A DNA stretch of 14,693 nucleotides, taken from IMG/VR virus record IMGVR_UViG_2541047965_000006; one strand, 5' to 3'. Made by a program: the position numbers. This DNA is from a virus. Taxonomy: Duplodnaviria; Heunggongvirae; Uroviricota; Caudoviricetes. This document shows, piece after piece, positions 3,001 through 6,000 of this stretch (the stretch's first letter is position 1; the number at the start of each line of letters is the position of its first letter).

Positions 3001-6000
3001 ACCGAACAGGGCCGCGCTATTCGCCAGTACTTCATCAAGTGCGAGGAGGAGCTACACAAGGTAGCGCCGGAACGTGCCGCAGCATTACGCAGCCTGAACC
3101 GGGTATCCTTCCGTTTCAAACGGAGCGATTAAAAGTTACACAGGGTTACAGCCATCAGGGGAATGAAAGGGGGAGCAATATACTTCAAATTATAATAATT
3201 AGCCTGCTAACTGTTTTTGTACGCAATTTGCCATTCAACCACTGGTCAGGCTTCAGGTGTTGTCATCCAGGCTGTGCATTATGTTTGAACTACCAAAGCA
3301 CTACCAGGGCCTTACCAGGGGAGGGAGTGGCCTTCTGGTATGGGGACCGCCGTTGGCGTTGGCACAGTGTTGAGGTATGGAGGGTATGCAGGTAAGGGAT
3401 GCTCCCTTAAATTCCCCCATAAGTAGCACATAAAAATAACACGAGTCAAATTAATAAAACTTATGGTGTTGAATTAAAAGGAATTTCATTTTTAAAACAC
3501 AGTTTCACAAATGGAAAAGGTGCTCACAATCTGACCACATAAAGTACTGTTACACCCCCAGTATTTGGGGTATCAGTGGAATTTAATATCAAAACTCAGG
3601 AGTAAATCAGGTGATTATCATGCCTGTAAACATGACCGGTAACCGCTACAGGCTACCAGCACGCTACCACCGTCAGAACATGCCACGGCATCGCATGGCG
3701 GTTTGTGGCTCTGATTTCTGGCAAGGCTCAAAATCTCGCCAGCGTGTGGGGGGTGTCGCAGCAGAACCCGCGCCCCGCAAGGCTTCTGCGCCTGTTATCC
3801 AGACTATGACCGATAAAACAAAGGCGACCGTGAGAGGTCGCCAGTGGGAGAGCTACATACGTGAACGCATTACCTACAATGCCACATTTGCGGCTGGTGG
3901 ACAATGTGTTCAGTGTGGTGGATGTGATTTGCCTGATCTTAATCGTCGTGGGCATTTTCCGATAAATTCCTCGAGAGCAAATCGTATTGGTCTGGTGAGA
4001 AGTGGGGGGTTAAGTGATGATTCCCGTTTCCGGTGTGCTTTTTTGCGTTGGCATTCGAGTATGGATAATGCAACTTCCTGTAATTCTTCATCTGTCATTG
4101 TCTGCACCTGTAAAGAAACGCGCCGTAGTTCCACACACCACGGCGCTGGTGGTTCTTATCCTCTGCTTTTGCAGGGAGGTAAGAATATTTTTCGCACAAA
4201 TCGTTCTGCCGACACATCCGACCACATAAGCCAAAAAACGGGATATACTCGCCGAATCCCTTATAAAACGGGGATCGGGATTACCACCCCGCTGGAGTTA
4301 ACGGCGATACATGACGCGCCAGCGTCTTTTTTTGTATCGGCGCACACGCACACCTTATCAATGGTGGGCTGTATGGGGCTGACTTCGGTCAGGCTGGTTT
4401 CCGTTAACGCCAGTTGTGGTAACCCTGTACAGTCCACCGCCAGCGAGCTTACCACCTCCGGCGGTGGGTATATCCCAACGTTAACGGAGGCTGCCATCAT
4501 GGCTACTACCCCTGTCCTCGTACATTCTCAAACTGCCTTTATCTGGCGTTTTATCGCTTTTGGTGCGTCAGAACGTCAAATCATCCATGTGACCGCCTGG
4601 ACGGAACGTGAAGCACGTAGCCTTTGCCCGTCCGGTTGCGTTGCTGTATTCGCCGCCCGTATCCGTCAGGGGGTGACTCATGCTTAAAACCTTCCGTGTC
4701 TTTTCCCGTGCCGTTAACAAGCGCGGCTATACCATCGGCATCACGCAGAACGTGAAGGCTGCGAACGTCCAGGCCGCAATCAGCACGGTAATTAACAAAT
4801 CAGCTAAAGCCGGTTTATCCGGTGTGATGATCCACTCCGTTATATGTATTCAGGATAAGGAGTAATTCATGCGTAATTTTTCCGACATGACTGTTGATGA
4901 AGCAGCAAAAAGCGCAATGCAGGCAGAACTTATTTGTTCTCTGATGATGGGTAACACAGGTGAAATGACTGAAGGTGAGATTGAGTCATTGCTCGCCCTG
5001 ATTAAGCAGCTTACAGGTAAGGCTGGTAGCTGGCTGATTGCGGCATCGGGTGATATGCAATAAGGGAAGAAATAACAGGATGAAATAAATACCAGCGGAT
5101 TAACAAATTACAATCAGGAAATAAAAGCGATGGAATTAAAAAATACTGGCTTTACTGCCAGCGGCAAAACTCACCCTGAATTTATGCGCGGAGATATTTA
5201 CCGCGATAAATACGGTGGCACGGTAACGATTAAGGGCGTGGCAGAACGGCGCATCACTTATCGCCGTGAAGGCTACGAATATGACTGCGTGATGCCTGTT
5301 TATCAGTTCGTTCGTGATTTTACGCTGGTGCAGACTGCGCACAGTAAGCAGTCCACCAGCCGGAAGAAATCTCACGCAAATATTCAGGACATGAAGAACA
5401 TATCCAGAGGTAAAAAATGAAAAGCGCACCGAATTTAAAAAAACAGCCACGAGGGAAAATACACGCCGACACGGAAGTGATTATTTTCGCTGGCAGTGAT
5501 GCGTGGTCACACGCGAAAGAGTGGCAGGAGCAGGACGGGCGACTGGCTGGTGATAACGTACCGCCTGTCGTGCTGGCCGATGAGCAACTTAAAGATATTG
5601 GCAATCTGCAAATTGTGCCTGACGGGAGAAAATCAGCACGGATATACAAGGCCGGACACCTTGATCAGTTAATGGTTAAGGCGATAGGTCAGAAGCTGGC
5701 GGCGGCAGGCGTACAGGACGCAGACTATTACCCCGAAGGTATGCACCATAACGAGCGGCAGAACTGGCGTAACTATCTGGATACGGAGCGCCAGAATCTT
5801 TCTGACGGGCTGGTTATTGAACTGCCTGTGAAGAAAAAAACGCCGGACCATGCGGAAGATGAACTGAAGCCCCGCGTTGAATGCCGCGCTGATGGCGTTT
5901 ACTGGGTAACGCCAAAGGTTGATAAGCAATCAGGCGAAATTATCCGTCCGTTCGAATGGCTGTGTTCTTCCGTTGAATTACTCGGTTCAGGTGTCATTGG

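Follow-up and report, generated by a model that had tools for sequence, protein, structure and literature searches.

A probable P4-like immunity and leader-control region, with an embedded antisense small gene, in an Escherichia coli island

The locus and its RNA genes

The DNA considered here, 14,693 nucleotides (nt) of virus record IMGVR_UViG_2541047965_000006 (Caudoviricetes) and referred to throughout as the window, carries genes for an integrase (int), an AlpA-like protein and Rha, then the region that concerns us (positions 3587–4687), and then, 3′ of icd, open reading frames (ORFs) of 61 and 64 amino acids (aa) and genes for DUF4222, a DUF927 primase, single-stranded DNA-binding protein (SSB) and others. 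The region is occupied by a long ORF on the plus strand, the last part of which is a small gene of the Icd/Kil type; embedded in this frame are a leader RNA with its own terminator, a C4-type antisense RNA, two sets of target sites for that RNA and, on the minus strand, a second small gene (Table 1). Positions 3587–4687 very probably control immunity and the early leader in a P4-like satellite island, in the manner of PLE-seqA-CI-seqC-kil/eta in P4 and of c4-icd at immI in P1. The region belongs, that is, to an already described system, P4/P1 C4-type antisense immunity with the eta/kil leader architecture of P4, and its host is E. coli. What sets this copy apart is the specificity allele it carries, the extension of its leader frame upstream by 630 nt, and an embedded, unannotated antisense gene; relative to the known system, only this minus-strand 62-aa ORF is new.

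Sequence related to the leader is carried by 1741 of the 5426 complete E. coli genomes, and a scan of contigs with the Icd protein as query returned two loci. The identical 358-aa product is encoded in GCA_000461615.1 (KE702533.1), where the island consists of an integrase, a 68-aa ORF, Rha, the 358-aa ORF, DUF4222, DUF927 primase, SSB, ProQ, PerC and a tail-tip-like gene.

Table 1. Features of the region and of the spacer before it, in order of position in the window
Feature	Position	Strand	Remarks
Variable AT-rich non-coding spacer	3133–3610	.	Between Ant-fragment ORF (2971–3132) and eta-like ORF; 478 nt
Shine-Dalgarno sequence CAGGAG	3597–3602	+	8 nt before GTG 3611; read from sequence
Eta-like translate-through leader ORF, 358 codons	3611–4687	+	Its last part, in phase, is the Icd/Kil-like gene
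Intrinsic terminator of antisense gene	3813–3842	−	Stem 3842–3823, GGCGACC/GGTCGCC then TTTGTTTTAT, T-rich tail to 3813; terminator scan
Small antisense gene, 62 aa, MTDEELQEVALSILECQRKK...RFALEEFIGKCPRRLRSGKSHPPH	3910–4098	−	ATG 4098, stop 3910; uncharacterised family
Shine-Dalgarno sequence AGGTG of antisense gene	4109–4105	−	6 nt upstream of ATG 4098
GC-rich hairpin in 5′ leader of antisense gene	4120–4146	−	Terminator scan
Candidate −10 box TATACT	4244–4249	+	Putative PLE analogue; implied start near 4256; aligned to P4 TATAGT 8704–8699
isrK/SeqA-like leader RNA with targets a1 and b1	4256–4332	+	Ends in intrinsic terminator; Rfam RF01394, 51.0 bits
Target a1 TTACCAC	4281–4287	+	Hairpin loop; perfect complement of a′, co-varies with it
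Target b1 GTTAACGG	4297–4304	+	Perfect complement of b′, co-varies with it
Intrinsic terminator of leader RNA, GACGC-GCCA-GCGTC + T7	4313–4333	+	Stem 4313–4326, T7 4327–4333; terminator scan
C4/CI-type antisense immunity RNA	4357–4444	+	Rfam RF01695, 77.6 bits, E = 4e-14, model positions 1–87 of 87
UUCG hairpin	4379–4392	+	First inner hairpin of C4
Recognition loop b′ CCGTTAACG	4401–4409	+	Complementary to b1 and b2
Recognition element a′ GTGGTAA	4416–4422	+	Complementary to a1 and a2
Hairpin CCACCGCC/GGCGGTGG	4434–4467	+	Arms 4434–4441/4460–4467; target a2 in loop; uses 3′ strand of C4 closing stem
Target a2 TTACCAC	4449–4455	+	Loop of 4434–4467 hairpin
Target b2 CGTTAACGG	4479–4487	+	Overlaps Icd/Kil Shine-Dalgarno GGAGG (4486–4490) serving ATG 4499
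Icd-like/Kil-like gene, 62 aa, MATT...	4499–4687	+	NCBIfam NF033153, 57.8 bits

The Rfam model for C4 (RF01695), a family that includes P4 CI, describes a closing stem with two inner hairpins and has a gathering score of 45 bits; the window RNA lies well above this and follows the fold from end to end. It also possesses the two single-stranded elements, a′ and b′, each complementary to one site upstream of the RNA and another downstream, and the complementarity of 4395–4409 with the b2 region amounts to 15 bp, G-U pairs included. Mature C4-type RNA is freed from its precursor in P1 and P4 by RNase P and 3′ trimming, and the 3′ sequence ...CGCCA is common to the window and P4. The leader RNA upstream is picked up by the isrK model (RF01394; gathering score 50 bits), a model with a pair of hairpins at its 5′ end and an intrinsic terminator to close; the equivalent site in P4 scores 60.8 bits.

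Comparison of related modules provides strong evidence that a and b elements pair functionally. The alignment comprises five related sequences—the window module, the island of E. coli 214-4, and phages PA2, phi191 and PhiR12_3—and is not phylogenetically corrected. It is nearly invariant save for the recognition triplets, which shift in concert at three places, the cores of the a-sites being ACC, CTC, GCT and AGG. For a′ with a2 and b′ with b2, 98.8% of alignment cells are paired and 7 of 16 pairs show double changes; for a1 with a′ and b1 with b′, all cells are paired (100%), and double changes occur in 7 of 15 pairs. Slid controls give 14–61% paired cells and 0–2 pairs with double changes. 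The window shares its a/b allele with the 214-4 island, unlike P4 and the Shiga toxin (Stx) phages, whose alleles differ. Taking P4 and the islands together, 13 copies of C4 represent at least six a′/b′ specificity alleles with complements at fixed offsets, exact for a2 in 10 copies and for b2 in nine. In 11 of the 13 the first GGAG comes 40–45 nt past the 3′ end of C4, and b2, where found, ends there; the exceptions are one copy with GGAG at +40 but without an exact b2, and one without GGAG. Some islands carry C4-icd units in tandem with different a′/b′ alleles (6998–7785 in L002 and 4690–5477 in L004, L numbers being our handles for loci; L020 has two C4 matches), and two such units would confer dual immunity specificities.

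A preliminary description of the window had seen in 3140–4498 a regulatory stretch with no credible gene, and of what it observed that last phrase alone does not stand. The UUCG hairpin, the 8-bp hairpin at 4434–4441/4460–4467 and the strong plus-strand terminator that it listed are all there, the last recovered by the terminator scan, and its impression of strong structure before the Icd-like start is matched by the folding of 4240–4510, which is more stable than that of shuffled sequences (z = −5.3). The arms of the 8-bp hairpin change together in P4, L005 and L004, sequences that were compared by eye. A 9-bp long-range stem, drawn between 4401–4409 and 4479–4487, stands as complementarity but not as an intramolecular stem: it is the antisense loop b′ on its target b2, over the Icd Shine-Dalgarno sequence, instead. 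A motif said to recur at 10.1 kb, CCCTGTACAG, does so, with exact copies at 4423–4432 and 10181–10190 and one-mismatch copies in 10119–10130; within C4 it is the 3′ strand of the closing stem, and no recognition element. The distant copies belong to a cluster at 10095–10270, upstream of the tail-tip-like gene at 10347, in which a 34-nt direct repeat (..TGGGCAACTGRAGCCCYCTGTACAG) has two copies and a degenerate third, with palindromic CTGTACAG cores and terminator-like GGGTTTTTTG. The cluster has that 10-mer in common with the C4 closing stem and holds no C4 target motif; nor do paired a and b target motifs occur anywhere else in the window.

Relation to P4, P1 and phage modules

On its minus strand P4 (NC_001609; L008) has an ORF at 8168–8812 in which three adjacent ATGs near 8767 give the 197–199 codons of eta. 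This ORF holds c4-a1b1 (8653–8705), isrK (8615–8692), the C4 RNA known as CI (8420–8507) and a2/b2, and it ends in the 65-aa MATT... kil, matched by the Icd-like model. What used to be annotated as the 'cI gene product' coding sequence (CDS) belongs to the same frame. The window is laid out alike. An a1/b1 leader with its terminator (isrK) is followed by a C4-family RNA and by a2/b2, which adjoin the GGAGG that precedes a MATT... Icd-like gene, and the whole module lies within a long ORF that ends as kil, upstream of a primase operon. The nested arrangement of eta/kil is present: a long ORF with internal candidate promoter, terminator and immunity RNA, ending in phase as kil. Local blastn of the two DNAs aligned the terminator segment alone (89% over 38 nt), and it is the matches to RNA models and protein families that show homology. 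Judged by NCBIfam NF033153 (Icd-like host cell division inhibitor, cut-off 25 bits), both predicted products are family members, the window's through aa 310–353 of the long ORF and P4 Kil with 73.3 bits.

The two also differ. The a′/b′ elements are TTCTCAC/CCTGTGAA in P4 and GTGGTAA/CCGTTAAC in the window; the eta-like ORF has 358 codons compared with 197–199, because some 630 nt, including the antisense cassette, stand upstream of the promoter; and the window has no alpA/vis coupling, different downstream genes, and no epsilon. The Icd/Kil-like gene overlaps the next ORF (4680–4865) by 8 nt (4680–4687), and the same overlap, of the ATGnnTAA type, occurs in P4 at 8168–8175 between the cI CDS and epsilon, though the downstream genes are unrelated.

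To our knowledge, the long in-phase upstream ORF is a feature of P4 and not of P1. The immI region of P1 and P7 resembles the window in other ways: C4 is co-transcribed with its target, recognition is in two parts, a′ and b′, at sites flanking c4, the downstream site masks the ribosome-binding site of icd, and an icd-like gene comes first after c4. It differs in what follows icd, which in the window is replication genes and not ant; no ant gene is coupled to icd there. The P1 c4-icd-ant operon is under C4 antisense RNA control (PMC8198154), and the Rfam C4 and isrK models pick up relatives of CI and seqA in Gram-negative phage-inducible chromosomal islands (PMC10111431).

For P4, the passages of PMC10111431 that summarise Forti et al. 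(1999) place PLE inside eta, attribute termination to CI and seqA, describe Kil as truncated Eta, and state that full-length Eta is made solely from the upstream late promoter and that such translation prevents termination. Hershko-Shalev et al. (2016; PMC4825925) describe IsrK as structurally homologous to P4 SeqA. If the window region behaves as P4 and P1 do, then while the island is quiescent the leader would be transcribed from an internal, constitutive promoter (−10 TATACT at 4244), and the transcripts would halt at 4333 or else read through and be processed to C4. Acting on a2/b2, and on a1/b1 as well, C4 would block translation of icd/kil, and premature, Rho-type termination before the replication genes would follow. 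After induction, transcripts from farther upstream would bear the Shine-Dalgarno sequence and start at 3597–3611; ribosomes would then cross the whole eta-like frame, over terminator, C4 and targets, and make the transcript insensitive to immunity and termination alike.

Several points weigh against this picture. That translation of the eta-like frame may guard against premature termination is an extrapolation from P4, the only system in which this has been demonstrated. The main weakness of a translate-through model for the window copy is the absence of P4-style coupling to an upstream gene: 478 nt separate the frame, which has its own Shine-Dalgarno sequence, from what lies upstream, and no translational coupling to the alpA/vis homologue was found. 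Because this spacer is untranslated, Rho would have access to upstream transcripts before 3611, barring a promoter within the spacer. The box at 4244 has no good −35, and it was missed by the sigma-70 consensus scan, which reported no promoter in 2900–4800; it is placed by alignment to P4, where TATAGT (8704–8699) stands directly 5′ of the start of the isrK model. The isrK score itself, 51.0 against 50 bits, is a mere 1 bit over threshold, and the Rfam model for c4-a1b1 (RF03163, 4243–4295) gives 19.6 bits (E = 0.055), under its gathering score of 46.7, though the a1 and b1 complements are present and co-vary. Lastly, the genes downstream of icd are neither ant, as in P1, nor epsilon, as in P4.

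Coupling or abutment of the eta-like ORF to an upstream gene is found in relatives (L003, L004, L005 and L033). The window spacer is 81% identical to that of a single E. coli island (L002), with 22 gap columns that are not multiples of three and so break any reading frame. Six of the 5426 complete E. coli genomes have it, and phage PhiR12_3 carries part of it downstream of cI. Searches of the spacer gave no Rfam match and no consensus promoter, and those of 1000–3650 gave no P2 Ogr/Delta-type TGT-N12-ACA dyad. Farther upstream, at 2861–2933, a 21-bp unit, TGGGACGACATCGAGACATTT, is repeated 3.5 times in tandem. The array, which lies between Rha and the Ant-fragment ORF, reads as FWDD repeats in one frame and could consist of iterons or operator repeats.

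Modules closely akin to the window's also occur in phages, as isrK-orf45-anrP in Gifsy-1 and as isrK-C4-Rha/ant in Stx and lambdoid phages. Over 4240–4518 they are 83–88% identical in nucleotide sequence save for the co-varying specificity triplets, with the same terminator and the same two AUGs at the start of C4. The window module might, on this precedent, be mainly an activator switch and not a replication repressor: the RNA at 4256–4333 would act in trans on the read-through transcript, or titrate C4 through a1/b1, and the orf45 equivalent (AUGs at 4361 and 4373) and icd would be translated. The likeness to the Stx/lambdoid modules favours such a role, as do the isrK match above gathering score, the pair of in-frame AUGs that C4 has at its 5′ end, spaced by 12 nt just as for orf45, and the reports that IsrK in trans activates translation of orf45/anrP and that a processed RNA exists downstream of IsrK (PMC4825925). 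The phage modules, however, control an antirepressor (Rha/AnrP) through a short coupled ORF, whereas the corresponding frame of the window is fused in phase to icd, with no AUGA coupling, and extends far upstream; the setting is a P4-like satellite with eta/kil architecture, in which repression by CI is the demonstrated role; and the three-way covariation of a1, a′ and a2, and of b1, b′ and b2, fits C4 as the common partner. Activation as the main function seems to us unlikely, and it would be compatible with P4-like immunity in any case.

A probable small gene on the opposite strand

Upstream of the P4-like immunity module, within the long frame, lies the minus-strand ORF of 62 codons. This ORF is probably a real gene, to judge from its pattern of conservation. 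It is intact in all 22 loci, which represent 14 distinct sequences, and across these its ratio of non-synonymous to synonymous polymorphism (pN/pS) is 0.40 and its replacements average −0.37 in BLOSUM62. The eta frame over the same stretch has pN/pS 0.63 and BLOSUM62 −0.97, the latter equal to that of non-coding frames. A paralogue and homologues at 43–48% identity retain the C-terminal motif RP.(K/R)FALE.F..K.PRR.KSGK..PPG and have indels of whole codons. The single-sequence AlphaFold2 model of the protein consists of two helices (predicted local distance difference test score, pLDDT, 73). A full HMMER scan found eight representatives; tblastn found none in phages, its matches being limited to three E. 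coli 'plasmid' records.

Might this ORF be no more than a shadow of the open plus frame, and nothing in 3611–4243 be protein-coding in the conventional sense? The plus and minus frames share wobble positions, and because of this each frame mimics constraint in the other. The word-indexed protein search with the 62-aa ORF gave no match, no Pfam or PHROG family was found for it, and it has not been found away from its genomic position. A shadow would not be expected to have the lower pN/pS of the two frames and the more conservative replacements, nor to keep a C-terminal motif and whole-codon indels in its paralogue and distant homologues, nor to come with its own Shine-Dalgarno sequence and terminator. 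The ORF is intact, moreover, even in a decayed remnant (L015/L017) where the plus frame is broken, and the antisense cassette next to it in L002 can be recognised as an Arc-like repressor. We regard the shadow explanation, too, as improbable.

Antisense cassettes of this kind are not confined to one per frame. Up to three antisense small genes occupy a single eta-like frame in L002 (5858–6661), L032 (1271–2350), L033 (3638–4171) and L003 (4106–4618), and they include an Arc-like ribbon-helix-helix repressor (L002 6095–6274) and a member of phrog_21027. In the four multi-cassette islands checked, these same ones, all cassettes are in the same register, their third positions coinciding with those of the plus frame. 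The decayed remnant L015 (2992–3711 and 5133–5206) keeps two intact members of the antisense family and lies near Esr41, a small RNA of enterohaemorrhagic E. coli; no C4 or icd match was found across this 6.2-kb locus.

What the long frame encodes

Stop codons are absent from 3587 to the TAA at 4685–4687, and 304 codons of this run precede the ATG of icd at 4499; following the GTG at 3611 there are in-frame ATGs at 3620 and 3632. Over the same 304-codon span, stops number 13 and 18 in the two remaining plus frames and average 13.5 in shuffled sequences. For a frame with none, the Poisson probability is about 1e-6 to 2e-7 in the window; in relatives it ranges from 1e-7 to 1e-13. Stop counts and shuffles together rule out a chance origin. 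Islands of E. coli about 75% identical in DNA have 384–567 stop-free codons upstream of icd, and the divergent islands L032 and L033 have 473 and 493; L001 and L007 have a run of 161 codons in shifted phase. The plus frame is open for 204–691 codons in the 22 loci with the small antisense ORF, and it is in phase with icd, and continuous into it, in 17 of the 19 loci that have an icd match.

Relative to typical E. coli proteins, for which we used approximate figures, the conceptual product is enriched in Cys (2.8-fold), Ser (1.8-fold), Arg (1.7-fold), Thr (1.7-fold) and His (1.5-fold), and depleted of Leu, Glu and Lys. It is made up of a 211-aa extension with no PHROG family, a Pfam Phage_ASH match (PF10554) at aa 212–305, and the Icd-like segment. 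In P4 Eta, Phage_ASH takes up aa 22–146, again just the part that bears the RNAs, and the Icd-like model aa 146–193. The PF10554 match of the window scores 44.1 bits against a gathering score of 26; it coincides nucleotide for nucleotide (4244–4525) with isrK, C4 and the targets, and for that reason says little about a protein. Phage_ASH appears, instead, to have arisen by conceptual translation of RNA genes that are conserved inside eta-like frames. Pseudogenes called 'ash family protein' by the Prokaryotic Genome Annotation Pipeline (PGAP) also match the isrK/C4/target stretch, at 4244–4525 in the window and at 8330–8704 in P4. Scored outside the antisense gene and the RNA module, the eta frame has pN/pS 0.9–1.3. 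The first 40 or so codons (3620–3743) are about 96% identical to L002 5472–5586, while the flanking spacer is 81% identical; the changes there are few and spread equally over synonymous and non-synonymous sites, and this conservation may reflect an element acting at the nucleic-acid level, or a recent exchange.

The preliminary description had anticipated a good deal of this. Its ribosome-binding site 8 nt before GTG 3611 is present, the stop-free run is as unexpected as it supposed, and the bias it noted toward Arg, Ser, Thr, Cys and His is confirmed by measurement. The ORF it reported on the opposite strand, with ribosome-binding site and downstream minus-strand terminator, is there in every part and bears out its suggestion of convergent small genes. 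Its other suggestions fared less well. The long frame is not an orphan protein, being the analogue of P4 eta with the Icd-like gene as kil; for the same reason a terminator within the ORF is expected and no contradiction. A regulatory RNA region does sit before the replication operon, where P4 has CI, but it is not an RNA switch unrelated to that of P4, as the C4 and isrK matches attest.

An ordinary plus-strand protein gene is ruled out by pN/pS near 1, radical replacements, composition, and a Pfam match that coincides with RNAs. The stronger proposal is that the RNA genes are merely embedded in a functional Bro-network protein, Ash/Eta, encoded by the 358-aa ORF, and that the sequence of this protein matters. 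In its favour, the open frame comes with a Shine-Dalgarno sequence and gene callers report it, Pfam domain included; an AntA domain begins the same frame in some relatives; and eta is counted among the Bro-network genes in PMC10111431. The proposal is nevertheless very unlikely given the same four features, replacements as radical as in non-coding frames among them, an N-terminal part that belongs to no family in PHROG, and a content and length (199 to about 690 codons) that differ with the antisense cassettes inserted.

The simplest reading is that the frame is kept for translatability and not for amino-acid sequence, a view that, for the window island, would lean on the experiments in P4. 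Selection would act against stops rather than for a protein, because ribosomes would translate across the terminator, C4 and the targets. One can go further, and suppose that the frame is stop-free purely so that ribosomes can escort upstream transcripts, even antisense through bona fide small genes, and that the 62-aa helix-linker-helix protein is an undescribed component of the switch; we offer this tentatively, as a possibility we would sooner doubt than believe. Were it true, this protein, a regulator, for example, or a source of convergent-transcription interference, would have been hidden by 'Ash/Icd-like' gene calls.

For annotation, the consequences are more immediate. The '358-aa Ash/Icd-like protein', and the many 'ash family protein' pseudogenes of PGAP, should rather be understood as a P4-type RNA immunity module in a translate-through leader. 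The long plus ORF masks what is probably a real small gene on the minus strand, unannotated because gene callers take the long ORF. The a/b specificity triplets would define immunity alleles, from which it may be predicted which satellites and prophages cross-regulate one another. And long stop-free leaders that run over antisense genes would make a clean natural system in which to study selection on translation as protection from Rho.

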